Shown here piece after piece: positions 2,062 to 31,054 of a DNA stretch of 64,000 nt. The DNA is from Pseudomonadota bacterium. Its GTDB lineage: Bacteria > Pseudomonadota > Gammaproteobacteria > Pseudomonadales > Balneatricaceae. The translations under genes and the position numbers were made by a program. The stretch lies in assembly GCA_034189745.1 (NCBI GenBank), contig JAXHUI010000003.1:15048-79047 (forward strand). The letters are read 5' to 3'. Under the pieces are notes generated by a model. The model was not told the DNA's origin and searched no databases. It saw only the letters and a list, made by a program, of their open reading frames with translations. Position 1 is the first letter of the stretch. Each line of letters begins with the position of its first letter.

Positions 2062-2069
2062 TTACGACC

Positions 2070-2309
2070 TCATTCAGCGGGTTTTTCCTCCGCCACGGGC
2101 AGTTTGACCGGACGGGAAGGCACCACTGTGGAAATAGCGTGTTTATAGACCATCTGGCTCACGGTGTTTTTCAGCAGCACCACGAACTGATCAAATGACT
2201 CGATCTGCCCCTGCAGCTTGATACCGTTCACCAGAAAGATGGATACCGGAACGCGTTCCTTACGCAGAAGATTAAGATAAGGGTCTTGTAGCGATTGCCC
2301 TTTTGACAT
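2070..2309 (-). CDS. hfq: RNA chaperone Hfq
   Basis: [30 protein letters not shown]...[10 protein letters not shown]. Confidence 0.99.
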
Positions 2310-2409
2310 TGCAAACTCCCTCCAGAATGGGTAACTGTGTCATGTAGTTGTAATCGATTCACTCGTTGCCGACGAGGCATCATACACCGGTATACTGAGT
2401 TTGCGCGCG

Positions 2410-2439
2410 ATTATAGCGTGAGTGGCACAGCATTGGCAG
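2410..2439 (-). promoter_or_regulatory. Candidate sigma70 promoter for hfq inside the miaA 3' end
   Basis: Minus-strand TATAAT (2410-2415) with CTGCCA (2434-2439) at 18-nt spacing; hfq promoters within miaA are known in E. coli. Confidence 0.4.
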
Positions 2440-3373: not shown

Positions 3374-5172
3374 TATTCGCCTCGCATGAAGAGTTTATCC
3401 AGTTGCGCCAGACTCAGCTGGCTCCAGGTGGGTCGGCCGTGATTGCACTGGCCCGCGCGCTCGGTCTGCTCCATCTCGCGCAGCAGTGCGTTCATTTCGG
3501 CCAGCGTCAGCTGCCGATTGGCCCGCACCGCGGCATGGCAGGCCATGGTGGCCAACAGCTCATTCAAGTGCGCCTCGATCCGATCGCTCACCCCCACCCG
3601 GAGCAGATCCGCCAGCAGCTCATGCAGCAACCGGGCCACATCCGCCTTCGCCAACGCCACCGGCACCTCGCGGATCACCAGCGTCTCTTCGCCCATCCGC
3701 TGCACACGGAAACCCAGGCGTTCGAACGACTCCGGTTGCGCCTCCGCCAGATCCGCCTGCGCGCCGCTGACCGCCACGCTGACCGGAACCAACAACGGCT
3801 GACGGCGAATCTGCTCCTGTTCGAAGGCGCGTTTCAGCCGCTCATAAACGATCCGTTCGTGGGCCGCGTGCATATCCACCAACACCAGCCCCTGCGTGTT
3901 CTGCGACAAAATATAGATGCCGTGCAGCTGCGCCAGGGCGTAGCCCAGCGGCGGCGTCTCGACCCCCTGCCCGGCGGGCGCGGGCGCCTCCCCCGCCGGG
4001 TGCAGGGCCCCGTAGGCCCGCAGCTGCTCCTGCACCCCTGCAGCGGCGGGCGGGTGCCCACCCCGGTGGGAGGGAACCGGGGTGGCACTCATGCCGGGCT
4101 GAACCCAGCTCGCCGGGGCTGGAACCGCTGCCGCACCGGTGGAAGGGACACCCTCGTGTTGAGGGCGCAGTTGGGCGATGGTGCGGTAGAGGGTGCGAAA
4201 GATGAAATCATGCACCAGCCGGCTTTCACGAAAGCGCACCTCATGTTTGGTCGGGTGTACATTGACATCCACCAGCGCCGGGTCGAGCTCCAGGTAAAGC
4301 ACATAGGCCGGGTGGCGGCCCTGAAAGAGCACATCCTGATACGCCTGGCGCACCGCATGGGTCACAACCTTGTCACGAATGACCCGGCCATTGACGAAAA
4401 AATACTGCTGATCCGGTTGTGCCCGGGAACAGGTCGGCAGCCCCATCCAGCCCCACAGACGTAGCCCGGACGCCTCGGCCTGCAGATCCAGCGCCACCGA
4501 CTCGGCCACAAACGTCTTGCCCAGCAACTGGGCGAGGCGCTGCTCACGGGCCGCCTCACGGGTGGCGGCGCGCAGCTGATGCACCATTTTGCCGTTGTGG
4601 CGCAGGCTGAACCCGACCTGGTAACGGCTCAGGGCGAGCCGCTTCACCACCTCCTCCAGGTGACGAAATTCGGTCTTTTCGGTTTTCAGGAACTTGCGCC
4701 GGGCCGGGGTGTTGAAGAACAGATCACGCACCTCCACCGTGGTGCCGGTGGGGTGTGCCGCGGGCATGATCTCGGCCACCATCTCCCGCCCCTGCGCGGA
4801 CACGGCCCAGCCGCTCTCCTGCTGCGGCGGCCGGGAGATCAGGGTCAAGCGGGACACGGAGCTGATGCTGGCCAGCGCCTCGCCCCGAAAGCCGAGACTG
4901 GCGACAGCCTCCAGATCCTCGAGCAGGGTGATTTTGGAGGTGGCGTGTCGGTTCAGGGCCAGGGGCAGGTCCGCCTTGTCGATACCGCTGCCATTGTCAC
5001 GCAGGCGGATCAGCTTGACGCCCCCCTGCTCGATGTCGAGCTCGACCCGGTCGGCGCCCGAGTCCAGACTGTTTTCCAGCAACTCCTTGACCACCGAGGC
5101 GGGCCGCTCGACGACCTCGCCGGCGGCGATCTGGTTGGCCAGCTGGGGGGAAAGAAGATGGATGCGTGTCAT
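3373..5172 (-). CDS. mutL: DNA mismatch repair protein MutL
   Basis: [61 protein letters not shown]. Confidence 0.98.
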
Positions 5173-5188: not shown

Positions 5189-6526
5189 TCAGCCGGTCGG
5201 AATGCGCAGCACTTGGCCGACGCGGATCTGGTCGCTGCTGAGTTGATTCACCTGCCGCAGCCGCTGCAGTGAAACCCCGTTGCGCTGGGCGATGACAGAG
5301 AGGGTATCACCGGAGACCACTTTATAGAGCCGTTCGCCGCTGGCCAGTTGACCACCGGAGTGTTTTACCCAGGCGATGTAGCTGCCGGTGGGGGGTTTTT
5401 CCCAGAAGTGGCCGGTTATGCCGCGAAAGATCGACTGCGCCATCTGACGCTGGTAGCGGGCGGTTTTCAGTTTGCGCGCCTCCTGCGGATTGGAGATGAA
5501 ACCGGTTTCAACCAGAATCGACGGGATGTCGGGGGATTTCAGCACCACGAAGCCGGCCTGCTCCACCCGTTTTTTGTGCATGTGGGCAAAGTTGGCCATA
5601 TCGGTATGAATTCGGGAGGCGACCTGATAACTGTCCTTACGGCTGGCATTCATCGACATATCGAGCAATACGCTGGCCAACATATCATCCTTGTCATCCA
5701 GACTGAGGCTGCCGACGCCACCGATCAGGTCGGCGCTGTTTTCGCGCTGGGCCAACCAGCGGCCCATCTCACTGGTGGCTCCCCGCCCCGACAGCACCCA
5801 GACCGAAGCCCCACGGGCGCGAGCATCCCGGAAAGCATCCGCGTGGATGGAGACGAACAGATCGGCGTTGCTCTGGCGCGCCTTCTGGGTACGGCCACGC
5901 AAGCTGATGTAGTAGTCTCCCGTGCGGGTCAGCACGGCCCGGTAGCCGCGCTCGGCATCGATCAACCGCTCGAGTTCCTTGGCGATCCTGAGCACCACCG
6001 CCTTCTCCTTGATGCCACCGGGGCCGATGGCGCCGGGATCCTCCCCGCCGTGCCCGGCATCGATCACGATCACCAGATCCCGTTTGCTCTCCCCGCCCGG
6101 CACCGGCACCACGGATCGGGTCACGACCGCTTCCTCGCCCATCCCCAGATCGACCACCAGACGATGGCCATACTGCTCATTCGGTTTCAAGTCGAAACTC
6201 TTGGGGCGCACCTCGCCGTTGAGATCCAGCACGATTCGCACGCCATCTCCACGCGGGCCGTGGCGGATCTGGCTGACCGGGCTGCCCTCCAGCCCCAACC
6301 CTTCCAGGGAGGCGTTCAGCTTCACATGCTCGATATCGATGACCACCCGCTCGGGGTCCGACAGGGTGAACAGCTTGTGCTCGACCGGCCCGCTGAGGTC
6401 GAACACCAAGCGGGTGTTGTCCGGCGCCAGCCAGGCACGGACATTTTGAATCTCCTGCGCCGCCTGAGCGAGCGGCACCAGCATCAGCAGCAGGAGTGAG
6501 CTCAGCAGTATGCGCACGTTATTCAT
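5189..6526 (-). CDS. amiB: N-acetylmuramoyl-L-alanine amidase (AMIN + Amidase_3 + C-terminal LysM)
   Basis: Signal peptide from MNNVRILL (start overlaps the tsaE stop); IDAGHGG, SIHADA, ILVETGF; Lys[11 protein letters not shown]. Confidence 0.92.
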
Positions 6527-7026
6527 CAGCCCGTATCCGAATTGCGGATCTTCCACAGCGTATCGGCCATGGTGGCCCCCTTTTGAGTGTGACTTCGCAG
6601 GCGTAATCTGCGCCCGCTCCCCTCGAGGGTGAGCCCGATCTCGAGATCGGCTAGCGGTAACAGCGGCTCGCCCCGCTGGGGCCATTCGATCAAACAGAGC
6701 GCGTCACTGTCAAAGTAGTCACGGATGCCGAGATATTCCAGCTCCTCGGGATCACCGAGTCGGTACAGGTCGAAATGGTATACGACACCGGCGGGCGTCT
6801 CATAGGGCTCGACCAGGGTGTAGGTCGGGCTCTTCACCGCCCCTCGGTGGCCACAGCCGAGCAGCACCCCACGCGTGAAGGTGGTTTTGCCCACTCCCAG
6901 CTCACCCAGCAGAAAGATGATGGCTCCACCGCTCACCGCCCGGGCCAGCTGCGCGCCGCAACGGACCGTTTCGGCTTCATCGGCCAGGAAAAGTTCCCTC
7001 TGCGGCCCAGCTTCAATCGAGCCCAT
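6526..7026 (-). CDS. tsaE: t6A biosynthesis ATPase TsaE
   Basis: GELGVGKT, VKSPTYTLVEPY, HFDLYRL, IEWP. Confidence 0.96.
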   Translation of the reverse strand: MGSIEAGPQRELFLADEAETVRCGAQLARAVSGGAIIFLLGELGVGKTTFTRGVLLGCGHRGAVKSPTYTLVEPYETPAGVVYHFDLYRLGDPEELEYLGIRDYFDSDALCLIEWPQRGEPLLPLADLEIGLTLEGSGRRLRLRSHTQKGATMADTLWKIRNSDTG

Positions 7027-8518
7027 TGAGCACTCGCCTCACCCGCTCGGCCAGATCGGTTGCCAGCAACCCCCGCTCCCCCTGCTCCTGGGCACACAGG
7101 TCGGCGGCTCGGGCATGGGCATAGACACCGACGCGGGCCGCATCGATCGGGCTCAGTCGCTGTGCCCGCAGGGCGGCGATGACGCCGGAGAGCAGATCCC
7201 CCATGCCACCACAGGCCATCCCCGGATTGCCGGCACTGCACAGATGCAAGCCGTCGCCATCGAAACTCAGGCTGCCGGCTCCCTTGAGCACCACGGTACC
7301 GCCCAGTTGCCGTTGCAGCTCACGCACCGCCCGAAAACGGTCCCGCTCTATCTGCGCGACCTGCTGGCCCAGCAGGCGGGCCGCTTCTCCCGGGTGCGGG
7401 GTGAGAATCCAGTCATGCCGCCCGGCCTGCAGATGTCGCCGCTGTGACAACAGGTTGAGCGCATCCGCATCCAGCAGCAGCGGTTTGCCACTGGCGAGCG
7501 CCAGCTGCAGCAGCTGCTCGCCCCACGCCCCTTGCCCCAGGCCCGGGCCGACCAGTAACAGATCGGGCCGCGCCAGCAAAGGCTGTAACGCCTGACCGGA
7601 ATCGATCCCGGTGGCCATCACTTCGGGGGTTCGGCTCAGTGCCGCTGGCAGATGTTCAGGCCGGGTCGCCAGCGATACCAGCCCCGCTCCGCTGCGAGCG
7701 GCCGCCTGCGCGGCTATCAGCGCCGCCCCCCCCATACCGTGATCACCACCGATCACCAGCAGATGACCGAACGCTCCCTTGTGCGCGGAGCGCCGGCGCG
7801 GCGGCAGCAGCTTGACCAGGTCGTCCCGGTCGGTGCGGAAGGCGCTGGGGGATATCTCCTCGTACACCTCATCCGGCAGCAGCAGAGCGTCAAACGTCAA
7901 TTCCCCGCAATGATCCACCCCCGCGTGGGTCAGCAACCCCTGTTTGAGGGCGATGAAGGTCACCGTCACGTCCGCCTCGATCGCCACCCCCAACACGGCA
8001 CCGGTATCGCTGCAGAGGCCGGAGGGAATGTCCACGGCCAGTACCGGCCGATGGCTGCGATTGAACTGCCCGATCAGCTCGGCGGTTTCACCCCCGACCT
8101 CACCCTCGATGCCGGTGCCCAGCAGGGCATCCACCAGCACATCGCCGCACAACTCCGTGCCGGGGCGCCAGCGCTGGGGCTGCACCCCCACCGCCTGGGC
8201 CCAGCGCCAGGCGGCCAGCGCCTCGCCCCGCAGCCGCTCGGCGTAGTCGTCCGCCAGCACCAGTAACTGCACCCGCATCCCCCGCTGCCGGGCCAGTCCG
8301 GCCACGACCAGGCCATCGCCACCGTTGTTGCCGCCACCGCAAGCGATGGTCAGGCAGCGCGCCCGCGGCCAGCGCCGGAGCAACTCGGCAAAGGCGGCAT
8401 GACCCGCTCGCTGCATCAGGCGAAACCCGGGGATATCGAACCGCTCGATGGCGATCCGATCCAGGGCGCGGCTCTGGGCTGCTGTGTATAATGCGCTGGG
8501 CAGGCTCGATCTGCTCAT
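7013..8518 (-). CDS. nnr: Bifunctional NAD(P)HX epimerase/dehydratase (YjeF)
   Basis: GGGNNGGDG, DALLGTG, AVDIPSG, HKGAFG, LTPHPGEAARLL, GGMGDLLSG. Confidence 0.95.
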   Translation of the reverse strand: MSRSSLPSALYTAAQSRALDRIAIERFDIPGFRLMQRAGHAAFAELLRRWPRARCLTIACGGGNNGGDGLVVAGLARQRGMRVQLLVLADDYAERLRGEALAAWRWAQAVGVQPQRWRPGTELCGDVLVDALLGTGIEGEVGGETAELIGQFNRSHRPVLAVDIPSGLCSDTGAVLGVAIEADVTVTFIALKQGLLTHAGVDHCGELTFDALLLPDEVYEEISPSAFRTDRDDLVKLLPPRRRSAHKGAFGHLLVIGGDHGMGGAALIAAQAAARSGAGLVSLATRPEHLPAALSRTPEVMATGIDSGQALQPLLARPDLLLVGPGLGQGAWGEQLLQLALASGKPLLLDADALNLLSQRRHLQAGRHDWILTPHPGEAARLLGQQVAQIERDRFRAVRELQRQLGGTVVLKGAGSLSFDGDGLHLCSAGNPGMACGGMGDLLSGVIAALRAQRLSPIDAARVGVYAHARAADLCAQEQGERGLLATDLAERVRRVLNGLD

Positions 8519-8547
8519 GATTGACAAACTCCTATTCCTGTCGGTCC

Positions 8548-8553
8548 ATTATA
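8548..8553 (-). promoter_or_regulatory. Candidate -10 hexamer for the nnr-tsaE-amiB-mutL operon
   Basis: Perfect TATAAT on the minus strand about 30 nt upstream of the nnr ATG, followed by an AGGAG RBS; -35 match is poor. Confidence 0.35.
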
Positions 8554-8592
8554 AAGAGTGGATGGACCGAGTGCGATGGCAACCGTTTCCCC

Positions 8593-9720
8593 ATGTCTGA
8601 CTACCCACCCGAACAGCTGCAGCAGATCGCTCAAGCGCTGCAGCGCAAGGCCCGCCAACTGGGCTTTCACGATTGCGCCATCACCCGGCCCGACGCCAGC
8701 GCCGAACGGGAACCCTACCTACGCTGGCTGGCGGCGGGGTATCACGCCGAGATGGGATACCTGACCCGGAATCTGGAGAAACGGTTCGATCCCACGCGGC
8801 TACTGCCGGGCACCCGCCGCATCATTGTGCTGCGGATGAATTATCTGCCGCCAGCGCCGCTCACCGCGGTGCTGCGCGATCCGGATCGGGCCTACATCGC
8901 CCGTTACGCGCTGGGACGCGACTACCACAAACTGATGCGCCAGCGGCTGAAACAGCTCGGCCGCTGGCTCAACGATCAGGTGGAGGGGGTGGAGGTGCAG
9001 TTTCGCCCCTTCGTGGACAGCGCGCCGATTCTGGAGCGGGCGCTGGCACGCAACGCCGGGCTGGGCTGGATCGGCAAACATACCCTGCTGCTCGATCGCC
9101 GGGCCGGTTCATGGTTTTTGCTAGGTGAGCTGTTCATCGACCTCCCCCTCCCGGTGGAGGGTGCGGCGGCGCAGCCGCACTGCGGCCGCTGCCGTGCCTG
9201 TCTGGATGTGTGCCCGACCAACGCCTTTCCCGAGCCCTATCGGCTCGACGCCCGCCGCTGCATCTCCTATCTGACCATCGAGCACAGGGGCAGCATCCCG
9301 CACGAGCTGCGCCCCCTGATGGGCAATCGCATTTTCGGCTGTGACGACTGTCAGCTGATCTGCCCCTGGAACCGCTTCGCCCGACGCTCCAGCGAGGCCG
9401 ATTTCCAGCCCCGCCATGGACTTGATACGGCCGCGCTGCTGGAGCTGTTTCTCTGGGACGAGGCCACTTTTCTGGCGCGCACGGAGGGGTCGGCGATCCG
9501 CCGGGCCGGCTATGAAAGCTGGCAGCGCAATCTGGCGGTGGCGCTGGGCAACGGTAGCGGCGGCGCGGCGGTGGAGGCGGCGCTGCACCAGCGCCGCGCC
9601 ACCGCCGCAGAGCTGCTGCGCGAGCATATCGACTGGGCCCTGCAGCAACTGCGTGAGCGCACCAAGGCGCGCCCCCTGCCGCTGCTCGATCACCCCGGCG
9701 CGGGCCGCCTGCCGGAGTAG
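8593..9720 (+). CDS. queG: Epoxyqueuosine reductase QueG
   Basis: ARYALGRDYHKLMR, FVDSAPILER, GWIGKH, CGRCRACLDVCP, CISYLTIE, GCDDCQLICPWN; divergent from nnr. Confidence 0.96.
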   Translation: MSDYPPEQLQQIAQALQRKARQLGFHDCAITRPDASAEREPYLRWLAAGYHAEMGYLTRNLEKRFDPTRLLPGTRRIIVLRMNYLPPAPLTAVLRDPDRAYIARYALGRDYHKLMRQRLKQLGRWLNDQVEGVEVQFRPFVDSAPILERALARNAGLGWIGKHTLLLDRRAGSWFLLGELFIDLPLPVEGAAAQPHCGRCRACLDVCPTNAFPEPYRLDARRCISYLTIEHRGSIPHELRPLMGNRIFGCDDCQLICPWNRFARRSSEADFQPRHGLDTAALLELFLWDEATFLARTEGSAIRRAGYESWQRNLAVALGNGSGGAAVEAALHQRRATAAELLREHIDWALQQLRERTKARPLPLLDHPGAGRLPE

Positions 9721-18313: not shown

Positions 18314-18663
18314 TTTTCTTTGTCCTCTATCTTGTTTTTTTGCGCGGCGGAAGTGGAGAGGTAGCGCGCCAGCGCATCCAACTCGCGGGCACTGATCTCA
18401 GAGGGTCTAAAGGGGGGCATCATATTGAGCCCGTGGCGGACAATCCGGCGCACATAATCCGGCTCCAGCGGCTCTCGATCCAGCAACGATGGCTGTTGCG
18501 GCCAGCGATCAGCGAGTCGCGCCGTACCCGGATACTCCATGCCGCGATCATGGCAGACGGTACAATATTGTTCGAACAGCGCCCGGCCATCGGGCTCGGC
18601 GAGCAGTGTGGATGAAAGAGTGCCCAAACCAAGCCCCACGGCCAGCGATAGCAATGTTTTCAT
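18310..18663 (-). CDS. Monoheme cytochrome c subunit (PchC-like)
   Basis: Sec-type signal, CTVCH, PGT, VRHGLNMMPPF (axial Met). Confidence 0.88.
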   Translation of the reverse strand: MKTLLSLAVGLGLGTLSSTLLAEPDGRALFEQYCTVCHDRGMEYPGTARLADRWPQQPSLLDREPLEPDYVRRIVRHGLNMMPPFRPSEISARELDALARYLSTSAAQKNKIEDKEK

Positions 18664-20234
18664 CAGACTCCCTCCTTCCGCAGCCGTTGGGGCCAGATCC
18701 CCATCTTGCCAGGCCCCAGTATGCCGCTTGGATCGAGGGCATCCTTCAACCGCTCCCGCTGTCGCTGTTGGGCGGCGTCATTCCAGTTATAGGTGCCCGC
18801 TATTTTGTCCATGAAATCGAGGTGGGTGCGATATTCACCATACCCTTCGGCCGCGGCGGCATCGATCAGCTCGCCAAACAGCTGGTTCGCCCGACGCTTT
18901 TCCGCCTCATCCTGCAGATCATAAACAAGGGCAAAAATGTGGTGCATGTCACGCCAACCAACCAGCATCTCGCCGATGTAATCGAACCCGGCCCGGTTGA
19001 CACGATCCCGGATCAGACTGTACTGGCGCATCGCATCCTCGCCGGTGACGGGGGAGATGGGAGAGAAGTCCATGTGTCCGCCGTTGGGGATCCAGTTCAT
19101 CTGGTTGTACTCGGTCATATTGGGGATGCCGCGCATGAGCTGCCTGCGGTACTCCCAGCCGATATCCCCCTTGCGATCGTCGTCGAAGTAGATTTTCGCC
19201 CCCGGGATCGACGTGAGCGAGTCACGGATGATCTCGAGGTTGTTTTCCATGATCGGCGCCGGGCCATAGACAGCCCCATAAAAATTCCACACCCCGATCT
19301 GCAGATCGGCACGCAGTTTCTTTCTCGCCGACTCCGGCAAGGGCCCCTTGCCGGTGTGGTAGTGACGGCGCTGCTTTTGCACGGCCGCCTCCCAGAGCAT
19401 CTCCACGGTGGTGGCGGCGTTGGGAATGATGTTGTTGAGCTTGAGCGGACGAACCCGCTCGGTGACCTCGTACAGATCCTCCTCGCGCTCGTAAGTGATC
19501 ATGAAGGGGGTGTAGCCCGGCGGCTCCGGCATCAGCCAGATGCCGATCCGGGTCACCACGCCAAAATTGGACTGGGTAAAAAGCCCGTCGGCCCATGGCC
19601 CCAACCCGTATTTGTAGAGGTGTGTGGTGCGGCTGCCGGGCAGGGCACCCATGGCGGTGTGGGCGATCGTGCCGTCAGCGAGCACCACCTCCATGCCGCA
19701 CTGCATCAGCAGGTGATCACCATACGGGGTGTAACCGGCTCCATGGTCCACCAGATTGCCCAACATGCCGCCCCAGCCCGGCGCGGCGGGGTCGATCCAC
19801 AGTTTGGAGCCGATGCTTTGCAGATGCCGATACATATCCATGTAGCTCACGCCGGGCTCCACCACGGCGTAGGCGTGTTTTTCATTTACCTCGAGGATCC
19901 GATTCATCCGTTTGAGGTCCAGCACCACCGCACCGGCCAGCCGGGGGGCAGGGCCGCCATAGGCGAAATTTTTACCCGTGGAGATCGGCCACAGCGGGAT
20001 GCCGTATCGTCCTGCGGCGCGAACAACGGCCTGCACCTGGGCCACGTTCGCCGGGGCGACGGCGGCGGAGGGCTGATGCAGCGCCTTGGGCAGGGTGGCA
20101 TATTCGTCATTGTAGGCGGGCAATTCCCATTCGAGATCGAGGTAGACGTAATCCCGACCCACCGCTTTTTGCGCCTCGGCCACAAACCCACGGAAAGCCT
20201 CACCGTTCACCTGCGGCGGAAGTATTCTCTCCAT
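18663..20234 (-). CDS. 4-alkylphenol/vanillyl alcohol dehydrogenase flavoprotein (VAO/PCMH family)
   Basis: STGKNFAYGG, VEPGVSY, GYTPYGDH, NWIPNGGHMDFSP, GEYRTH, DPSGILGPGKMGIWP. Confidence 0.9.
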   Translation of the reverse strand: MERILPPQVNGEAFRGFVAEAQKAVGRDYVYLDLEWELPAYNDEYATLPKALHQPSAAVAPANVAQVQAVVRAAGRYGIPLWPISTGKNFAYGGPAPRLAGAVVLDLKRMNRILEVNEKHAYAVVEPGVSYMDMYRHLQSIGSKLWIDPAAPGWGGMLGNLVDHGAGYTPYGDHLLMQCGMEVVLADGTIAHTAMGALPGSRTTHLYKYGLGPWADGLFTQSNFGVVTRIGIWLMPEPPGYTPFMITYEREEDLYEVTERVRPLKLNNIIPNAATTVEMLWEAAVQKQRRHYHTGKGPLPESARKKLRADLQIGVWNFYGAVYGPAPIMENNLEIIRDSLTSIPGAKIYFDDDRKGDIGWEYRRQLMRGIPNMTEYNQMNWIPNGGHMDFSPISPVTGEDAMRQYSLIRDRVNRAGFDYIGEMLVGWRDMHHIFALVYDLQDEAEKRRANQLFGELIDAAAAEGYGEYRTHLDFMDKIAGTYNWNDAAQQRQRERLKDALDPSGILGPGKMGIWPQRLRKEGV

Positions 20235-20815
20235 CAGACAGCCCTCCCCGGCAAGGCGAGCAGAGAGGCCCTGGCCGTGTCAGCCCAGCACTGCGCCTGG
20301 TGCAGCCGCGAAATCCGCTTTTGCTTGAAAAGCTCGCGGGGGTCCAGATCGAGAGCCAGCAGGTTGCCGGCAAAGTCGTACTCATCGCGCGCGGCGCCCA
20401 CGGCCCCGGCCAAAGAGCCCGCCAGGGAGGCGGGGGCGTGGATCTCATGCAGCCGCGCAGCTTTCGCGCCGTGCATGCCGCGCATGACGACTCGCCAGCG
20501 GCTGCCCAGTTGGGTGCGAAGAGCGAAAATGGCGGCGGGCGTCCCCAGAGCGACCAGGGCAGAGTAGTTGTCGACCGACAACGGCCCCTCCGCCTGGTGG
20601 GAAATCGCCGCGGCACGCTCCAGACTCAGGGGGTGGTGCTCGAGCGATACCCCCCTTGGGGAAAAGGGGAGGCGGGGATCGGGATGCTCCGAGAGCAACA
20701 ACACAGGGCGCAGATCGGTGCGCGGATCACCAACCAGCCCCGCCCAGGCCGGCAGAACCGTTGCCCCACACAGCAGGCCGGTCGTACCGGTCAAAAAGTT
20801 TCGTCGCGTCATCAT
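20234..20815 (-). CDS. Tat-signal protein of unknown function, first gene of the aromatic operon
   Basis: TRRNFLT twin-arginine motif, hydrophobic stretch, AWA cleavage site; GAGGA RBS; stop overlaps the flavoprotein start. Confidence 0.7.
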   Translation of the reverse strand: MMTRRNFLTGTTGLLCGATVLPAWAGLVGDPRTDLRPVLLLSEHPDPRLPFSPRGVSLEHHPLSLERAAAISHQAEGPLSVDNYSALVALGTPAAIFALRTQLGSRWRVVMRGMHGAKAARLHEIHAPASLAGSLAGAVGAARDEYDFAGNLLALDLDPRELFKQKRISRLHQAQCWADTARASLLALPGRAV

Positions 20816-21783: not shown

Positions 21784-22652
21784 ACCCCACCTTGAAAAAG
21801 ACCCTGTTCGTTCTGCTGCAGCATCTTCTGCCCCAACATCTGCTGTCACGCCTGGTGGGGCGCCTCGCCGAGTGCCGCACCCCCTGGATCAAGAACCGGC
21901 TCATCGACGGCTTCCGTCGCTACTACGACGTAGACATGAGCGAGGCGCTGCAGCCGGACCCGGCGGCCTACCCGCACTTCAACGCCTTTTTCACCCGCGC
22001 CTTGAAGGCGGACGCTCGCCCCCTGGACACCACCCCGGGGGCGGTGCTGTCACCGGTCGATGGCACCATCAGTCAGCGGGGAACCCTCCAGTATGGCCGC
22101 ATCTTTCAGGCCAAGGGGCGCGGCTACGCACTGACCACCCTGCTCGGTGGCGACAGCCAACGGGCCGACCCCTTCATCGACGGTGAATTCGCCACGCTCT
22201 ACCTGTCGCCGCGGGATTACCATCGGGTACACATGCCGCTGACCGGAACCCTGCGCGAAACGGTTTACATTCCGGGCGATCTCTATTCGGTCAACGCCAC
22301 CACGACCGCGGGCGTGGAAAACCTGTTTGCCCGCAACGAGCGCCTGGTGGCGATCTTCGATACGGCGTTGGGCCCCATGGCGATGGTGCTGGTGGGAGCG
22401 ATGATCGTGGCCGGCATCGAGACCGTCTGGCGCGGCCAGGTGGCACCACTACCGCGCCAGCCTCTGCTCCTGGACCGCTTTGACGCCACCCCGCCCCGGC
22501 TGGAGCAGGGTGCCGAGATGGGCCGATTCAAACTGGGATCGACTGTCATACTGCTCTTCCCCAAGGGCAGCCTGCAGTGGCTGGAGGGCCTATCGGCGGG
22601 CAGCCCGGTACGGATGGGTGAGCGGCTGGGACTGGCGCGGCGGGTCTGTTAG
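21780..22652 (+). CDS. psd: Phosphatidylserine decarboxylase proenzyme
   Basis: FNAFFTRALK, SPVDG, YLSPRDYHRVHMP, NLFARNER, GRFKLGST self-cleavage motif. Start uncertain (GTG 21780 or TTG 21792). Confidence 0.95.
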   Translation: MNPTLKKTLFVLLQHLLPQHLLSRLVGRLAECRTPWIKNRLIDGFRRYYDVDMSEALQPDPAAYPHFNAFFTRALKADARPLDTTPGAVLSPVDGTISQRGTLQYGRIFQAKGRGYALTTLLGGDSQRADPFIDGEFATLYLSPRDYHRVHMPLTGTLRETVYIPGDLYSVNATTTAGVENLFARNERLVAIFDTALGPMAMVLVGAMIVAGIETVWRGQVAPLPRQPLLLDRFDATPPRLEQGAEMGRFKLGSTVILLFPKGSLQWLEGLSAGSPVRMGERLGLARRVC

Positions 22653-22728
22653 CGCCACCGGCACTCTGGCAAAAAGGGGTGGCCGACACACCGGGCCACC
22701 CATCGATCAGCTCGCGACGGAGAACACC

Positions 22729-23730
22729 ATGCACACAGATTGGGTCGACCGGCTCAGGCAGCCGGGGTTTGAACTGGAAAATGACAGGCTGACCAAAGCG
22801 CCCGCCCCGCGGCACACCACCCGCTATGTCCCCCTGACCGACTACAGCATCATCTCGGTGCGGGGCCCCGCGGCGCATGACTTTCTGCAGGGACAGCTGA
22901 CCTGCGACCTGGATGAAGTCGACCGTCTGGGAGCACTGCCCGGGGCCCATTGCACCATCAAGGGGCGGGTACACAGCCTCTATCAGGTGATGCGCGCTGG
23001 CGACGCCGGCTATTGGCTGCGGGTTCGCAGCGACATGGCGGCAGACGCCCTCGCCTTGCTGAACAAATACATCATTTTTTCCAAGGCCGAAGCCAAACGG
23101 GAGGAGGCGCTGGTCGGCATCGGCCTGTTTGGCCCCGACGCCGCGAAGCTCGGTGACCAGCTCAGTGCCGACCTTGGCATTACCCATCTGCTGGTGACCG
23201 AACGCCCGGGCGCGCGGCGGGAGTGCTGGTTCGAAGCCCGGCTGATGCCAGCGGTGCTGGAGCTGGTCGAGCAGGGCGCCAGCCCGGCGGAGCGCAACGC
23301 CTGGGAGCTGCTCGAGATCGATGCCGCCGTGCCGGAGCTGGCGCCGGCCACCGCCGAGGCTTTTATTCCGCAGATGCTCAACCTGCAGGCGCTTGGCGGC
23401 GTCAGCTTCACCAAGGGGTGCTATACCGGGCAGGAGATCGTGACCCGGCTGCAGCACCGCGGCCAGCTCAAAAGGCCGATGTATCTGGCGGAGGTTTTCT
23501 GCAAGGCCGCCCCCCAACCGGGCGACCCGGTGGCCGTTGCGGAGCGGGACGAAGTCGGCCAGGTGGTGCGAGCGGCCCCCATCCCCGGCGGTTACAGGCT
23601 GCTGGCCGTCATCGCCAAGGAGCAGGCCGACCAACTACCGCTGCACCTCGGCGGCCGTGAAGGCCCCTTGCTCAAACTGCTGCCGCTGCCCTACGAACTC
23701 GACCCCGCGCTGTTCCAGAGCAAGCGGTGA
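22729..23730 (+). CDS. ygfZ: Folate-binding Fe-S/tRNA modification protein YgfZ
   Basis: FLQGQLTCD, FIPQMLNL, signature KGCYTGQE. Confidence 0.92.
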   Translation: MHTDWVDRLRQPGFELENDRLTKAPAPRHTTRYVPLTDYSIISVRGPAAHDFLQGQLTCDLDEVDRLGALPGAHCTIKGRVHSLYQVMRAGDAGYWLRVRSDMAADALALLNKYIIFSKAEAKREEALVGIGLFGPDAAKLGDQLSADLGITHLLVTERPGARRECWFEARLMPAVLELVEQGASPAERNAWELLEIDAAVPELAPATAEAFIPQMLNLQALGGVSFTKGCYTGQEIVTRLQHRGQLKRPMYLAEVFCKAAPQPGDPVAVAERDEVGQVVRAAPIPGGYRLLAVIAKEQADQLPLHLGGREGPLLKLLPLPYELDPALFQSKR

Positions 23731-24017
23731 TCGGCCCGACGCCAAACCCGGGCGTGCCCGTCATCGAGGTCAAAATGCGCGAAAGCCTGTTTATCAAAGA
23801 GGGTACCGGAGAACTGATGCTCTCGCGCAAGCTCAATAGGCTGGTCAAGGCCCACGACGCCCAGGCCGTACTGCTTGGCACCTATGCCATAGGCGGCCAA
23901 TATGTCTATGTCAACGTGCGCCTGGTGCGTACCAGTGACAACATCATCCTGGGCTCCCACGATTTCAGCTTGCCGCTCAATAGCGATATAAAGGCGATGC
24001 TGCCCCGGCGCCGTTGA
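23727..24017 (+). pseudogene. C-terminal half of a FlgO-family domain (truncated remnant or short variant)
   Basis: GELMLSR...AQAVLLGTY...VNVRLV...ILGSHDF matches the recalled FlgO C-terminal pattern; no signal peptide or N-terminal half. Confidence 0.5.
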
Positions 24018-24031
24018 GCGATGACCACGCC

Positions 24032-24072
24032 CCAATGGAGCGGCACCGGTGAGCCGCTCCATTGGAGTTTTA
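24032..24072 (+). terminator. Intrinsic terminator after ygfZ/flgO-like
   Basis: Perfect 13-bp stem CCAATGGAGCGGC / GCCGCTCCATTGG, 8-nt loop, followed by AGTTTTA. Confidence 0.75.
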
Positions 24073-24331
24073 TCCCTCGAGGCTGGCATCACGCGCAACT
24101 CCGGTCTGAACGGCGGCAAACCTTTCACCCCAGTTCCTCAGCCTCGACGACACCGCCTGTTCCACCCTCGCCACACTTTTGGCCGCTGCGAACCGATTGG
24201 CCCGAATCAATATTGCAGGCGCAGAAGGTCACGCCGATTCTCCGATGGGCACAGTAATCTCCTCCTATCACTGCTAGGCTGGGGGTGATTGGTTTTGTCT
24301 GCTTCATTGCAGACTAATGAGGAGAGTCTAT

Positions 24332-25555
24332 ATGCAAGTCAATCCCGACAAGGGGTATATCGCCCTGCTGGGCTGGAGTCTCAACGCCGTTGAAGCGGCG
24401 GCGGCCTTCGATCGACGTTATGTCGTGGTCGCACCGGACTGGGCCGAGGAGTACTGTCAGCAGCATGACATTCCTTACCTGGCCTGGAACTTTGAACGAC
24501 TCAATGACCGATCCATGGAGATAGCCGAAACCCTCGAGGCGATGGGGGTTGATGTCGCCGTGCCGCTGTTTGAGGAAACCGTCGAATGGGCCGGCGCCAT
24601 CAATGCGGTATTGCTGGACAACCCCCGCCTGCTGGGGCAATCCATGTTGATGCGTGACAAGTCCCTGATGAAGCGGCGCGCCCAGCTGGGCGGTATTCGG
24701 GTTGGCATTTTCGAAGAAGCCCACGACAGGGAGGATGTGGTCCGCTTCCTGCGCCGGGTCAACCAGACACTGCTCAAACTGGACGGTGACCCCAACGACC
24801 CGATCCACTTCAAGGCGTTCGACAAGGCGGGCAGCCTGGGTCACCGAGTGATACGCACCCCCGATGAGGTCGATGCGATCCCGGATGATGAGTTTCCTGC
24901 ACTGATGGAATCGCACCTGGATGGGTGGGAGTTCGCCGTGGAGGCATGGGTTCACCATGGCAAGGTTGTGTTTCTCAACATCTCCGAATATGTCACCCTG
25001 GGCTACTCGGTCTTTGTTCCCGCCTCCCCCGAGCTTGAAGCCTACCGCCCACAGATCAAGGCGCAGATTGAAAAGCTGGTCAAAACCTTCGATATTGAAT
25101 TTGGTCTTATCCACCCGGAATATTTTGTCACCAGTGATGGTGAGATGTACTTTGGCGAAGTCGCTTACCGTCCTCCCGGTTTTAAGGTGTTCGAGCTGCT
25201 GGAAAAGGTTTACGGTTTTAATGCCTATCAGGCCACCATGCTGGTGTTCGATCCCAAAACCACGGCGGCAGAGGTGAGGGCCTTTTTCCCGCGTGAAATC
25301 GAAGATGCCAACGGATATGCCGGCTGTTTCGGGGTTTATCCGCGTCGGCGCGTGGTTAGCCGGCTTGAAATTCCGGCAGAGACCGAAGATCACCCCTACT
25401 TCGATTTCCACGAGCTGACCCCTCCGCTGCAGGAAACGGTCACCAAACGGACCGCCTTTGGTACCCACTGGGGGCTGATCTATTTTACCGGGCCCGACGC
25501 CCATGAGATGCGTCGACTACTCAAGCGACAGGAAGAGCTGGATTTTTATATATAA
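24332..25555 (+). CDS. ATP-grasp carboxylate-amine ligase, L-amino-acid-ligase-like
   Basis: RDKSLMK, KAFDKAGSLG, MESHLDGWEFAVE, IHPEYF, GEVAYRPPG; GAGGAG RBS before ATG 24332. Confidence 0.8.
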   Translation: MQVNPDKGYIALLGWSLNAVEAAAAFDRRYVVVAPDWAEEYCQQHDIPYLAWNFERLNDRSMEIAETLEAMGVDVAVPLFEETVEWAGAINAVLLDNPRLLGQSMLMRDKSLMKRRAQLGGIRVGIFEEAHDREDVVRFLRRVNQTLLKLDGDPNDPIHFKAFDKAGSLGHRVIRTPDEVDAIPDDEFPALMESHLDGWEFAVEAWVHHGKVVFLNISEYVTLGYSVFVPASPELEAYRPQIKAQIEKLVKTFDIEFGLIHPEYFVTSDGEMYFGEVAYRPPGFKVFELLEKVYGFNAYQATMLVFDPKTTAAEVRAFFPREIEDANGYAGCFGVYPRRRVVSRLEIPAETEDHPYFDFHELTPPLQETVTKRTAFGTHWGLIYFTGPDAHEMRRLLKRQEELDFYI

Positions 25556-25592
25556 TGTCGGGCAATCTTCGGGAACTTAGACAGGGGCCTGT

Positions 25593-27605
25593 GTGAACAG
25601 CGACCAGAACAGTGCGAACGACAAGCTGACCACGCTGCTGCGGCGCCTGGATCAGGCGATCGAGCAATATCAGAGTGCGGTAGAGTTTGCCAAACCGGGC
25701 AAGCTGCCTCGATTGGTCGACCTGTTGCGGCGGGTTCTGTTGGAAGAGGGGGGGTGTGCGGCTGTTGAGGCTCGTGCCCAGCGCCTGGAAGAGGCCGGTT
25801 TTTTTGCCGGCACAGACTGGGCAACGCCACAAATCCTGGTGCCCTCACTGACCCCACATGCGTTGGGCAGTGCCGATGCCACCCTTGTGGTGCTGGAGGC
25901 CGTCAGCGAGCTCAGACTGCTGACGGTCGCGCTCCATGGCTACCCGCATCCGCTGATTTCAGCCGAGCAGGCGCATAACTACCTGACTCAGGTGATGGCG
26001 ATCAACCTGGCCTTGCTGTTTATGCCACCCTCCGAGGCTGAGCGGGAGACACAGGGGCGACTGGCTCAGCTTCCGCGCAATCTGTTTCAGCATCTGGCGC
26101 AACGCATCGGCTATGAGCGGATCATTGACCGACTGATTGACGAGATCTGGCGGATCCTGCGCCAGCGCCCCATTCAGGTAGAACCGGTCAAGCAGATGGT
26201 GACCCAGATCGCCATCTGCCAGCAGGACCCGAATATCGACCTGGGCGGCAGTGGCCAGGGGGCCGACCGACTGGTCAGCAGCCTGTTTGGCGTGACCCAG
26301 GCCTGTCGGGAAGACCCCGGCGTAGAGGTGTATGCCGAGCGGCTGGCCAGCATGGACCGGCAGGCGCTGCAGTCCGAGGCCATCGGATTTGCCCGCGCCA
26401 TGCATGATACCGGGCTGGTCTCGCCCTACCATGCGGTGCTGTTACGCCACCTTCTGGTTCAGGATGAGCATTTGACCAGCGAAGCGTTGGGATTATCGTC
26501 CACGGGGCGTGATTGCTTCCTCTGCTACCGGGAGCTGGTACTGGCCTTGATCGGTCAGGGGATCTATCCGGAAACGGCTCAGGGGATCTACGGACTGGCG
26601 CTAATGCTGGAACGCGGCATTCTTTACCAGCCACCGGTGGCGCCTGCGCTCTGGCGCCAGCTGGGGCTGCGGCTCTCCAACTGGTCCCGGCAGCGGCTTG
26701 AGCTGGCGTTTGGCAGCGGGGTGACGGCCGAATCCCGCCTGGTTGAAGGGGTGCTGTGCATTCTGGGCTTGCCGCTGGGCGTCGGGCAGGGCAACAACCC
26801 GACCTGTCAGTCAGCACGCGCCCTGTCGATGTGGGCCTATAACGACCCGGATTACCTGCTGCAAATGCTGGTCTGGGCGGCTCGAGATGATGAGATCATC
26901 ATGCACTTTGAAGGGCAGCCGATCTCATCCCGAGAAAGCCTGGGCGGTGTCGCACGGGAACTTCCCATGGATCTTGATCCTGTTTCACTGCTGGTGGTCC
27001 CCCACCTGGATCTCATCTATGCCGAAATGGGACGGCGCTGCATCGGGCGTGAAGGAGACCCACACCGCTGGGTCAACCCGGAGTTTCACGGCTGGTGGTC
27101 CGGGCGCGGCTTCCGCATCAACGTGGACGTTGCGACCGGCAGCTTGATCGATCTGGATGACTTCCTGCGCACGTTCTACACCTGCTACCACCCCTACTAC
27201 AATGGCAACCAACCGTTGATCCACCCGCAGCCGGCCGGTATCGCCGTTACCGACAGCGCCGCGCGCTTTCTCGGCTGGCACGCGATTACGCTTCTGCGTG
27301 TTGCCCTCGATCCCGATGAGGTCATGCGCGTCTATTTCTACAACCCCAACAACGACAGTGGTCAGAATTGGGGCGATGGCGTGGTGGTCAGCACATCCGA
27401 CCGGGGCGAACGCTTTGGCGAGTCTTCGCTCCCCTTCGTGCAGTTCGCCTCACGGCTGTACATTTTTCACCATGACCCACTGGAGGGCGGTGACAAAACA
27501 CAGGTAACAGAGCAGGAGCTGACTGAAGTGAAAAACTACATCGCGCGCAGCTGGGGCGCCGACCGACAGCCCAGCGCCGCGCCCATGCAGACCACGAGCC
27601 GCTAG
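25593..27605 (+). CDS. 670-aa hypothetical protein with a putative papain/calpain-like catalytic domain
   Basis: Long ORF 37 nt after the ATP-grasp gene; QGNNPTC (Q399/C405), GWHAITL (H563), FYNPNNDSGQNWG (N584); no signal peptide. Confidence 0.65.
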   Translation: MNSDQNSANDKLTTLLRRLDQAIEQYQSAVEFAKPGKLPRLVDLLRRVLLEEGGCAAVEARAQRLEEAGFFAGTDWATPQILVPSLTPHALGSADATLVVLEAVSELRLLTVALHGYPHPLISAEQAHNYLTQVMAINLALLFMPPSEAERETQGRLAQLPRNLFQHLAQRIGYERIIDRLIDEIWRILRQRPIQVEPVKQMVTQIAICQQDPNIDLGGSGQGADRLVSSLFGVTQACREDPGVEVYAERLASMDRQALQSEAIGFARAMHDTGLVSPYHAVLLRHLLVQDEHLTSEALGLSSTGRDCFLCYRELVLALIGQGIYPETAQGIYGLALMLERGILYQPPVAPALWRQLGLRLSNWSRQRLELAFGSGVTAESRLVEGVLCILGLPLGVGQGNNPTCQSARALSMWAYNDPDYLLQMLVWAARDDEIIMHFEGQPISSRESLGGVARELPMDLDPVSLLVVPHLDLIYAEMGRRCIGREGDPHRWVNPEFHGWWSGRGFRINVDVATGSLIDLDDFLRTFYTCYHPYYNGNQPLIHPQPAGIAVTDSAARFLGWHAITLLRVALDPDEVMRVYFYNPNNDSGQNWGDGVVVSTSDRGERFGESSLPFVQFASRLYIFHHDPLEGGDKTQVTEQELTEVKNYIARSWGADRQPSAAPMQTTSR

Positions 27606-27611
27606 CGCCGC

Positions 27612-28301
27612 TCAGGCAGCGGGCGTCTCGGGCAGCTGCCAATCGATCGGCGCGCACCCCTGCTCGATCAGCCACCGATTGGCCTGGCTGAAGTGCCGAC
27701 AGCCCAGAAACCCACGCCGGGCCGAGAGGGGGGAGGGGTGCGCCGCCTCGAGGACCCGGTGGCGGTTGCGGTCGATCTTCGCCCCCTTTTTCTGTGCCTG
27801 ACCTCCCCAGAGCATGAACACGACCGCGTCGCAGCGATCGTTGACCAGCTGAATCACCCGGTCGGTGAACCGCTCCCACCCCCTGCCCCGGTGGGCATTG
27901 GCGTTGCCCTGTTCCACCGTCAGCACCGCGTTGAGCAGCAACACCCCCTGCTGCGCCCAGTGTTCCAGACAGCCATGGCCGGCCGGGGGAATGCCCAGAT
28001 CCGCCTGCAGCTCCTTGTAGATATTTTGCAATGAGGGGGGAATGCGCACCCCCGGTTTGACCGAAAAGCACAATCCATGGGCCTGACCCGGCTGGTGGTA
28101 GGGGTCCTGACCGATGATCACCACCTTCACCCGCTCCAGCGGGGTGGCTTCCAGGGCGTGGAACCAGTCGCTGGAGCGCGGATAGATCACCTTGCCGGCC
28201 GCTTTCTCCGCCTGCAGAAACCGTTTCAGCGCCTGCATGTAGGGCTGCTCGAACTCGGATTGCAGCCAGCGCTGCCAATCGGGTGCCTTCTCCAGTGCCA
28301 T
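27612..28301 (-). CDS. ung: Uracil-DNA glycosylase (family 1)
   Basis: [23 protein letters not shown]; GGAGGA RBS before ATG 28301. Confidence 0.97.
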
Positions 28302-28421
28302 TGATCCTCCCGAAAACAGGCCCCAGAGGGGAGAGCCCCCTGGGGCCTGGCAAGTTGCACCTGTAACGGGGGCCACCAAAGCGCGGCCCTGGGGTGACTC
28401 GCCTCCGACAAAAAGGGGCGG

Positions 28422-29936
28422 TCAGCTCCGGGGGCGCATCGCCGGGAACAGCAGCACATCCCGAATGGAGGCGGAATCGGTCAACAGCATCACCAGACGG
28501 TCGATACCGATCCCCTCCCCCGCCGTCGGGGGCAGGCCATACTCCAGCGCGTTGATGTAGTCGGCATCGTAGTGCATCGCTTCCTCATCGCCGGCCTCTT
28601 TCTCTTCCACCTGTTTGCGAAAGCGTTCGGCCTGATCTTCGGCGTCGTTGAGCTCCGAGAAGCCGTTGGCCAGCTCCCGCCCGCCGATGAAAAACTCGAA
28701 CCGGTCGGTCACCTGCGGATTGTTGTCGTTGCGCCGCGCCAGCGGGCTCACTTCGGTCGGATATGCGGTGATGAAGGTCGGTTGCTGCAGGCGATGCTCG
28801 ACGGTTTTCTCGAAGATCTCGATCTGGATTTTGCCCAGCCCCCAGCCGTCCTTCACGTCGATATCCATCCGCTCGGCGATCTGGCGGGCGGCCGCGGCAT
28901 CGGCCAACGCCTCGGCGGTGATCTCCGGGTTGAAGTGCAAAATGGAATCGAACACGCTCATGCGGGTAAACGGCTTGCCCAGGTCGTATTCGAAGGTTTC
29001 CAGCACCTCCCCGGCCTCGTTGCGCACGGTGTTGACCACGCAGGTGGTGCCCAGCACCTCCTGCGCCACGCAGCGCAGCATCTCTTCGGTCAGATCCATC
29101 AGATCGTTGTAATCGGCATAGCCCTGATAGAATTCGATCATGGTGAACTCAGGGTTGTGGCGGGTGGAGAGCCCCTCGTTGCGGAAGTTGCGGTTGATCT
29201 CAAACACCCGCTCGAAGCCCCCCACCACCAGCCGCTTGAGGTAGAGCTCCGGGGCGATGCGCAGGTACATCTGCAGGTCCAGCGCGTTATGATGGGTGAC
29301 GAACGGGCGCGCCGTGGCGCCACCGGGGATCGGGTGCAGCATCGGCGTTTCCACTTCGATGAAGCGCCGCTCGATCAGGTAGTTGCGGATACCCGCGATG
29401 ATTCTGGCGCGCATCTCGAACACCTTGCGCGAGCGCTCGTTCATGATCAGATCCACGTAGCGCTGGCGATAGCGCAGCTCCATGTCCTGCAGCCCCTTGA
29501 ACTTGTCGGGCAGCGGGCGCAGGTTTTTGGTCAGCAGCTGGTACTGCGCCATATCCACATAAAGGTCGCCCTTGCCGGACTTGTGCAACAGGCCGCTGAC
29601 GCCGATGATGTCACCCAGATCCACCCGCTTGGCAAAGGGGCGCGCCTCCTTGTTGACGTACAGCTGGATGCGCCCGCTCATATCCTGCAGCACCATGAAC
29701 GCGCCGCGATTGCGCACCACCCGGCCCGCCACGGCGACCCGGATGCCGGCCTGTTCCAGCTCCTCCTTGCTCTTGCCGCCATGCGCCCGCTGCAGGTCGT
29801 CGGCGTAGCTGTCACGGCGAAAGTCGTTGGGGAAGGGGTTGCCCTGCTGGCGCAGGGCGGCAAGTTTTTCCCGCCGTTCGGCGATCAGGCGGTTTTCATC
29901 TTGCGGTTGGTTTTGCTGCACGCTGTGGTCTGCCAT
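28422..29936 (-). CDS. lysS: Lysyl-tRNA synthetase (class II)
   Basis: [40 protein letters not shown]. Confidence 0.98.
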
Positions 29937-29959
29937 CGGGGATACCTTGAAACGGATAC

Positions 29960-31054
29960 TTACAGGCCGGCCTTGAGGCTGGCTTCGATAAACTGATCCA
30001 GATCGCCATCGAGCACACGATCACAGTTGGAGGTCTGTACGCCGGTGCGCAGATCCTTGATCCGCTGGTCATCCAGCACGTAGGAGCGGATCTGGCTGCC
30101 CCAGCCGATGTCCGCCTTGGAGTCCTCGACCTCCTGCGCCGCCGCGCGCCGTTTCATCATCTCCAGCTCGTAGAGCTTGGCGCGCAACTGCTTCATGCAG
30201 GTGTCGCGGTTTTGATGCTGGGAGCGGGCCGACTGGCTCTGCACCACGATGCCGGTGGGCTCGTGGGTGATGCGCACGGCGGACTCGGTGCGGTTGACGT
30301 GCTGACCACCGGCGCCGGAGGCCCGGTAGACATCCACGCGCAGGTCGGCGGGGTTGATCTCGATCTCCACGTTGTCGTCGATCTCCGGCGAAACAAACAC
30401 CGAGGAGAAGGAGGTGTGCCGACGGCCACCGGAATCGAAGGGTGATTTGCGCACCAGACGGTGTACGCCGGTTTCGGTTCGCAGCCAGCCATAGGCGTAT
30501 TCGCCTTCGAAACGGACGGTGGCGGACTTGATACCGGCCACCTCACCGCCGGATACCTCCAGCAGCTCGGTCTTGAACCCTTTCCTCTCGCCCCAGCGCA
30601 GGTACATGCGCAGCAACATATTGGCCCAGTCCTGGGCTTCGGTCCCGCCCGAGCCGGCCTGAATCTCCAGGAAGGCGTTGTTGGCGTCGGCCTCACCGGA
30701 GAACATACGGCGAAACTCCAGCTGCTCCAGCTGCTTACGCAACCGTTCCACATCCGCCTGCACCTCGGCGACGGTAGCTTCGTCACCCTCTTCAGCCGCC
30801 ATCTGCAGCAGGTCACGCGCGTCGCTGATACCGGCGGTCAGCTCATCGATGGTTTTCACCACCGTCTCGAGGCCGGAGCGCTCACGGCCCAGCTGCTGCG
30901 CCTTTTCCGGGTCGTTCCACACCCCAGGATTTTCCAGCTCGCGCTCAACCTCTTCCAGCCGGTCACGCTTGCCATCATAATCGAGGTAGCCGCGCAGCGA
31001 GCGGGTGCGCTCGCCAAACTCCTTCAGACTATTGAGAATCGGATTGATTTCCAT
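29960..31054 (-). CDS. prfB: Peptide chain release factor 2, single uninterrupted ORF
   Basis: SPF and GGQ motifs, [10 protein letters not shown]; MEINP start; 364 aa in one frame; upstream of lysS. Confidence 0.97.

Follow-up and report, generated by a model that had tools for sequence, protein, structure and literature searches.

We analyzed a stretch of 64,000 nucleotides (nt) from a Pseudomonadota bacterium of the family Balneatricaceae (assembly GCA_034189745.1, contig JAXHUI010000003.1, positions 15,048 to 79,047), hereafter the window, and focused on an open reading frame (ORF) for a hypothetical protein of 670 amino acids (aa) together with the ligase gene that precedes it. The elements of this locus, in window coordinates, are as follows:

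24032..24065, plus strand: terminator-like hairpin with a 13-bp stem and a T run, after the preceding FlgO-like ORF, marking the upstream boundary of the unit
24332..25555, plus strand: gene of an ATP-grasp carboxylate-amine ligase, 407 aa from the ATG at 24332 (the mechanical ORF from 24317 gives 412 aa)
25593..27605, plus strand: the 670-aa ORF, with a GTG start and the sequence AGGGG about 7-11 nt 5' of it

Neither a signal peptide nor a clear transmembrane segment was recognized in the 670-aa protein. Relatives are numerous: a collection clustered at 90% identity yielded 2754 homologous clusters, of which essentially every one is called "hypothetical protein" and most come from Halomonadaceae and related marine or halophilic Gammaproteobacteria. 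In one genome collection the family was found in at least 587 species, and a 50%-identity library contains 269 representatives, nearly all of about 650-690 aa. Scans of the window protein against Pfam, NCBIfam and PADLOC gave no match, so that neither the papain family (MEROPS C1; Pfam PF00112/PF03051) nor the calpain family (MEROPS C2; PF00648) was recognized by profile, and when the protein or the family profile was used to query the PDB sequences, the only matches were PPR artefacts caused by repeats in the helical region. One relative from Halomonas marinisediminis (P0077) is named "Zorya protein ZorC EH domain-containing protein" in UniRef; this label was rejected, as neither P0077 nor the window protein matched a ZorC or EH signature in Pfam and PADLOC.

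A preliminary description of this DNA, made from the letters and translations alone, had singled out the pair Q399-x5-C405, spaced as Gln19 and Cys25 in papain, and the motif GWH563AITL followed 21 residues later by N584-P…NWG, and had named conservation in homologues as a check. We found all these motifs at the residues given: QGNNPTC starts at residue 399 (nt 26787), GWHAITL at residue 561 (nt 27273), FYNPNN at residue 582 (nt 27336) and NWG at residue 592 (nt 27366), with the codons of C405, H563 and N584 at nt 26805-26807, 27279-27281 and 27342-27344, respectively. The proposed catalytic elements and one further conserved element are listed here with the evidence for each:

26787..26807, plus strand: Q399-G-N-N-P-T-C405, proposed oxyanion-hole Gln and nucleophilic Cys (invariance, helix position)
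27273..27284, plus strand: G561-W-H563-A564, proposed general-base His (conservation; within strand 559-572)
27342..27374, plus strand: N584-P-N-N-D-S-G-Q591-N-W593-G594, proposed third residue of the triad, then the NP…WG motif (conservation; end of strand 578-583)
27408..27428, plus strand: E606-x-x-G609-E610-x-S612, before the next core strand (invariant in both sets of relatives described below, 45/45 and 92/92)

Conservation was assessed in an alignment of 45 full-length relatives that are 23-51% identical to the window protein (39% mean identity per column) and in 92 copies derived from the loci described below. In the former, 20 of the 670 columns are invariant, including Q399, G400, C405, G561, P585, Q591 and W593, and C405 is the sole invariant Cys among the nine of the protein. 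H563 and N584 are each kept in 44/45 relatives and A564 in 43/45, with position 562 being variable. Among the 92 copies, Q399, G400, C405 and W593 are present in all, and H563 and N584 in 91. The single deviant (P0188; L086, positions 6001-7836) is a short form from a locus without the ATP-grasp gene, in which Leu and Ser replace H563 and N584 while Q399 and C405 are kept. This joint loss suggests that H563 and N584 work together, and P0188 may be an inactivated or repurposed paralogue. Motifs as short as these are expected by chance in any one sequence of 670 residues, and they become significant because they are conserved among relatives: Q399, C405, H563, N584 and W593, which the preliminary description had picked from the sequence alone, all fall among the 53 of 285 columns of the C-terminal domain that are at least 90% conserved, which would happen by chance with a probability of about 0.186^5 = 2e-4. 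Outside these motifs, W76, E102, Q191-R192 and T273-G274 are invariant or nearly so in the N-terminal region, and E606-x-x-G609-E610-x-S612 is a candidate substrate-binding element whose acidic character is presumed.

The structure of the protein was predicted with AlphaFold2 from the 45-sequence alignment, and the confidence and secondary structure of the output were read. The full-length model has a mean pLDDT (predicted local distance difference test) of 92.2 and a pTM (predicted template modelling score) of 0.90, and comprises two domains:

25593..26768, plus strand: N-terminal all-helical, solenoid-like domain, residues 1-392 (AlphaFold2, helices only at 8-392)
26769..27572, plus strand: C-terminal papain/calpain-like domain, about residues 393-660 (domain model, Foldseek)

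The roughly 390 helical residues that had been expected ahead of the motifs are thus recovered in the model, and this N-terminal part is presumed to be a scaffold or binding region. In the C-terminal domain, C405 opens the predicted helix 405-417, in the full-length model as well as in a model of the domain alone. H563 lies inside strand 559-572 and N584 directly after strand 578-583, with further strands at 546-553 before H563 and at 611-614 and 622-627 after N584. A papain-like core is defined by a Cys that opens the core helix and by an ensuing antiparallel sheet whose strands β2 and β3 carry, respectively, a His and a polar residue such as Asn or Asp (PMC10318531). With β2 and β3 numbered from the order of the secondary-structure elements, the model displays the arrangement of clan CA (SCOP d.3, Pfam CL0125), namely a Cys at a helix N-terminus, the His and Asn strands, and a Gln before the Cys. 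A side observation concerns the most divergent relative (P0220; L085, positions 7001-8722; 573 aa), which has only the C-terminal domain in common with the window protein (window residues 379-634), behind another N-terminal region; its gene follows a radical-SAM gene and not an ATP-grasp gene. A search with the C-terminal domain of P0220 for bridging relatives returned only two fragmentary ordinary members.

In a Foldseek search with the full-length model, weak solenoid matches of ARM/HEAT type (CAND1, AP2, beta-catenin; E ≥ 0.07) dominated, with few papain-family matches. Since the helical domain dominated this search, residues 360-670 were refolded alone, giving a model with a pLDDT of 94.6. 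Against the PDB, the first 37 matches of this domain model were all clan CA cysteine peptidases. Top-ranked were the cores of calpain-3, calpain-2 and calpain-1 (E 0.011-0.06, Foldseek probability 0.72-0.90, about 285 aligned columns, template modelling (TM) score about 0.35), the best being calpain-3 (E 0.011, probability 0.90, 289 aligned columns, TM 0.35, root-mean-square deviation about 8 Å). C1 papains, staphopains, Pd_dinase/BDI_2249 and PepW followed at ranks 6-37, and ZUP1 stood at rank 44. In a viral structure library, papain-family proteases of Marseillevirus and Lausannevirus and a cathepsin L were among the best matches. The fold evidence is therefore the consistency of the clan CA matches, not their scores: of the structure prediction and fold search that the preliminary description had called for, the confident model and the leading clan CA matches spoke for its proposal, while the scores remained weak (best E 0.011, TM 0.35).

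The closest resemblance was to the calpain core (MEROPS C2, PF00648; human calpain-1 and calpain-3). In addition to giving the best fold matches, calpains share with the 670-aa protein a cytoplasmic location, the QG-x4-C, G-H-A and N-P…W-G motifs and a near-equal spacing (C-to-H 158 and H-to-N 21 residues, compared to 157 and 24 in calpain-1). The calpain NPWG motif, however, is interrupted here by a seven-residue insert between NP and WG, domain III and the EF-hand modules are replaced by the 390-residue helical N-terminal domain, and the gene has an ATP-grasp partner, which calpains lack. The protein likewise resembles the enzymes termed "cluster I", namely papain (C1), staphopain (C47) and bleomycin hydrolase/PepW (C1B), in having a Gln six residues before the Cys, the Cys at a helix N-terminus, the His and Asn on consecutive strands and a Trp after the Asn (PMC10318531). 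In contrast to the papain group, it has no signal peptide or pro-region, Gln instead of Trp after the Cys, and a much larger helical subdomain between Cys and His.

We considered whether this likeness is coincidental or vestigial, in which case the domain would be a module without catalytic activity or another kind of enzyme using, for example, H491, H533, H626, E606 or E610. The weak fold-search statistics, the lack of a sequence-level link to any peptidase family in our searches and the presence of several further invariant polar residues fit such an explanation. Nevertheless, it appears very unlikely to us, given that C405 is the only Cys never replaced, that H563 and N584 disappear together in the one deviant copy, that the four residues sit on canonical elements of the predicted structure and that clan CA alone fills the first 37 PDB ranks. 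Taken together, conservation, placement on the predicted secondary structure, fold matches and calpain-like spacing support the earlier proposal of a clan CA peptidase, amidase or acyltransferase with a large scaffold region.

The second gene of the locus encodes the ligase, whose 407-aa start was chosen to match the length of its homologues. Public records label these homologues "carboxylate-amine ligase", and most of them carry a precomputed match to Pfam ATP-grasp_4 (PF13535), to which the window ligase scores 24.7 bits, below the 27-bit cut-off. The profile of the ligase family matched the L-amino acid ligases 4wd3 (E 8.6e-8) and 3vot (E 9.3e-5), and also 4dim (E 7.9e-7). As judged from its sequence, the partner gene belongs to the ATP-grasp superfamily and is L-amino-acid-ligase-like. 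The gap between the ligase gene and the 670-aa gene is 37 nt. Since the terminator-like hairpin lies upstream and the next downstream gene, ung, is convergent, the two genes are delimited as a unit and are probably transcribed together. Consistently, a crude-oil metatranscriptome contains one contig of 3768 nt (24115-27882) that spans exactly both genes and starts just past the hairpin.

We then looked at the neighbourhood of related genes in 81 loci, 80 of them from a collection of species-representative genomes and one being L001. In 75/81, the 670-aa family gene is immediately preceded by the ligase gene, with gaps of 14-196 nt and ligases 78-88% identical to that of the window. When the ORFs of 89 loci were clustered all against all, the 670-aa family was present in 89/89 and the ligase in 79/89; no third conserved gene, including any peptide gene, emerged from this clustering, and all the flanking genes change. 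The most divergent full-length members sampled keep the linkage (670-aa family 33-38% identical, ligase 45-54%), which was seen in contigs of 37-64% GC. The two genes overlap by 17 nt in L082 and by 4 nt in L087, overlap or abut in L092, and show the same linkage in L090 and L091. In L092 (positions 3-3710), the family member (33% identity) and its ATP-grasp gene adjoin an aEF-1β gene (PF00736) and a small archaeal zinc-finger gene, and these neighbours indicate that the cassette probably also occurs in Archaea. In L083 (3344-8827; also in L084) the ligase is followed by two family paralogues, a canonical one of 658 aa and a short form of 608 aa, without the last 50 or so residues, that keeps Q, C, H and N. 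By contrast, the ligase is deleted in two Vreelandella loci (L040, 5848-5967; L060, 5902-5955), where a 3' remnant of 18-40 codons precedes an intact 680-aa gene, and no ligase gene occurs within 6 kb at L051, L056 and L066.

Genomes that keep the gene without the ligase would be in line with a stand-alone, calpain-like regulatory endopeptidase, whose helical domain picks its targets and whose neighbouring ligase is merely co-regulated and acts on another substrate. Calpain protease cores are indeed the best fold matches, and solenoid domains commonly bind proteins. However, the ATP-grasp gene stays adjacent in family members ranging from 92% to 33% identity, in different phyla and probably also in Archaea, with the genes often overlapping while every other neighbour changes, and adjacency conserved to this extent normally means a shared pathway or complex. 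We therefore regard this alternative as quite unlikely. The linked ATP-grasp gene, which the preliminary description had not noticed, is the most informative feature for the function of the 670-aa protein.

Because the ligase gene is almost always directly upstream, the pair probably makes and breaks, or transfers, the same bond. Our preferred interpretation, which we hold to be probable on the basis of the sequences and the predicted model, is that the 670-aa protein carries, behind a helical scaffold of about 390 residues, a previously unannotated thiol enzyme domain of papain/calpain type (clan CA) that spans about 270, and that this enzyme and the ligase act on the same bond. C405 would serve as the nucleophile and H563 as the base, with N584 orienting the His and Q399 forming the oxyanion hole. 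The ligase would use ATP to form an amide or peptide bond, which the thiol domain would attack through a Cys405 thioester intermediate and then hydrolyze, with either the substrate or the ligase held by the helical domain. Ligase and amidase would then be a make-and-break pair on a common amide bond, comparable to glutathionylspermidine synthetase/amidase or to tubulin tyrosine ligase and vasohibin. We infer catalytic competence, hydrolysis rather than transfer, and a substrate common to both enzymes, be it a small peptide or conjugate or a protein.

Several results weigh against this interpretation. No PDB match of the domain model reached E ≤ 1e-3, at TM scores of about 0.35. A Pfam scan of 45 diverse members at E ≤ 1 returned no clan CA family, the scattered single matches being noise. 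When the profile of the C-terminal domain was compared with hhalign, no meaningful alignment was obtained with the calpain-1 core, and with papain only an irrelevant stretch of 10 residues was aligned; global alignment with shuffling gave z < 0, so that neither method showed similarity to calpain-1 or papain (the calpain-1 core sequence had been checked against PDB entries before use in alignments). H491, H533 and H626 are conserved as well, so that the choice of H563 rests on its motif and strand position. About 10/89 loci have no adjacent ATP-grasp gene, which shows that the thiol protein can persist alone, and the contig spanning both genes comes from an RNA library in which contaminating DNA is possible. 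Since Pfam, NCBIfam, the PDB sequence search and hhalign were all empty, we consider the 670-aa family not as a calpain but as a separate new family with a clan-CA-like core, belonging neither to C1 nor to calpain C2.

A different outcome of the same chemistry would be transfer. The thiol domain would then be a transpeptidase or acyltransferase instead of a hydrolase, taking the ligase product onto Cys405 and passing it to an amine acceptor, and the two enzymes would form a route to an oligopeptide or amino-acyl conjugate, for instance a solute in the mostly salt-adapted hosts. This possibility draws on the similarity of the ATP-grasp enzyme to L-amino acid ligases, which join free amino acids, on the mostly halophilic or marine gammaproteobacterial hosts, and on the invariant acidic residues D462, E606 and E610, which could bind an amine. 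Papain-fold transferases are, moreover, well known (see also PMC10318531). The gene context offers two further hints: in L087 (1-8019; GCA_030432035.1) the cassette directly follows argC, argB, argD, a GNAT gene, argJ and a second GNAT gene, and in L090 it precedes an alanine racemase and an M42 peptidase gene. The context of L087, a single occurrence, could hint at an ornithine- or arginine-related substrate. On the other hand, the arg and racemase neighbours were each seen once, and the pair is not accompanied by any conserved gene for a carrier protein, a transporter or a further biosynthetic step. A scaffold of 390 residues would also be unusual for a small-molecule enzyme, and the combination of an oxyanion Gln and a third-residue Asn typifies the hydrolytic papain/calpain group and not transglutaminases (PMC10318531). 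Overall, we find transfer possible yet rather doubtful, and continue to prefer hydrolysis of the bond that the ligase makes.

Known systems offer partial analogies for such a pair. Glutathionylspermidine synthetase/amidase is a fusion of an ATP-grasp synthetase with a CHAP Cys-His amidase that acts on the bond made by the ligase. The locus studied here would be functionally analogous in coupling an ATP-grasp enzyme to a papain-superfamily thiol domain, a coupling known here from gene linkage; it differs in comprising two genes, and in having a papain/calpain-type domain with a solenoid instead of a CHAP domain. In butirosin biosynthesis (BtrJ/BtrH) and in phytochelatin synthase, a papain-fold enzyme acts as an acyl- or peptidyltransferase via a Cys thioester, BtrJ being the ATP-grasp enzyme; these systems need a carrier protein (BtrI) or glutathione, in larger clusters. 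The parallel to BtrJ/BtrH would lie in ligase chemistry of the ATP-grasp_4 type next to a papain-fold thiol enzyme, whereas only two genes are conserved here and no sequence similarity to BtrJ/BtrH or phytochelatin synthase was found. In our literature search on this pairing of an ATP-grasp ligase with a thiol enzyme, we found no description of it.

A third analogy concerns protein modification. ATP-grasp enzymes of the tubulin tyrosine ligase or RimK type add an amino acid to a protein. Vasohibin is a papain-superfamily Cys peptidase, transglutaminase-like, with a Cys-His-Ser triad (PMC10318531). By analogy to this pair, an ATP-grasp enzyme could write and a Cys peptidase erase, with the scaffold possibly binding the protein target; by contrast, tubulin tyrosine ligase and vasohibin form a eukaryotic system, and the ATP-grasp enzyme of the window is closer to ligases of free amino acids than to RimK or tubulin tyrosine ligase. 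More speculatively, the cassette might be a horizontally spread, minimal "writer/eraser" of an amino-acid (or small-amine) modification on a conserved cellular protein, added by the ATP-grasp enzyme and recognized and removed by the solenoid-bearing, calpain-like enzyme. Prokaryotes would then possess an equivalent of the tubulin tyrosination cycle. We judge this idea unlikely; it would explain why the ligases of Gammaproteobacteria and of Nocardia and Mycolicibacter share 80-85% identity. Modification by the ligase of the C-terminus of the 670-aa protein itself was considered and rejected, the C-terminal tail being variable and modelled with low confidence.

Copies of the cassette from Actinomycetota were found at L067, L069, L071-L073, L076 and L079-L081 and as P0332, P0362 and P0364. 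In Nocardia, the 670-aa protein shows about 70% identity to its counterpart in the window, and the ligases of Nocardia and Mycolicibacter/Mycobacterium reach 80-85% identity to the window ligase, so that the Nocardia and Mycolicibacter copies are as close as those of other gammaproteobacterial orders. In the window, the GC content at third codon positions (GC3) of the two cassette genes is 0.67 and 0.75, compared to 0.80-0.85 for their neighbours. Because identity across phyla is high and GC3 is lower, we propose horizontal spread together with strong purifying selection, and the sequence comparisons indicate transfer of the cassette between phyla. No phage match was found for the cassette, which gives no sign of a phage origin, and the only match in a plasmid collection was a 1.8-Mb Halomonas replicon, so that the cassette is not typically plasmid-borne.

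With regard to the surroundings, a scan of positions 22000-30000 with Rfam returned nothing. A 692-aa ORF at 18489-20567 on the plus strand, without family match, is the shadow of a gene for a GlcD-like FAD-linked oxidase on the minus strand (18663-20234). From DNA runs, the organism occurs in metagenomes of wastewater, shale gas and oil production.

For the family, these results would give a testable catalytic assignment to about 2750 clusters at 90% identity, from at least 587 species and annotated merely as "hypothetical protein", and they add to the papain/calpain superfamily a family that current profile libraries miss. The two-gene module of an ATP-grasp ligase and a thiol enzyme is a new pairing. 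Its interest is moderate as it stands and would be high if the module proved to be a writer and eraser of a protein modification or a new small-molecule pathway. As many of the hosts are halophiles used in biotechnology (Halomonas) or hydrocarbon degraders, knock-out work is practical. Finally, the module is conserved in Gammaproteobacteria, Actinomycetota and low-GC bacteria, and probably in Archaea too, a distribution that implies a specific amide-bond chemistry.

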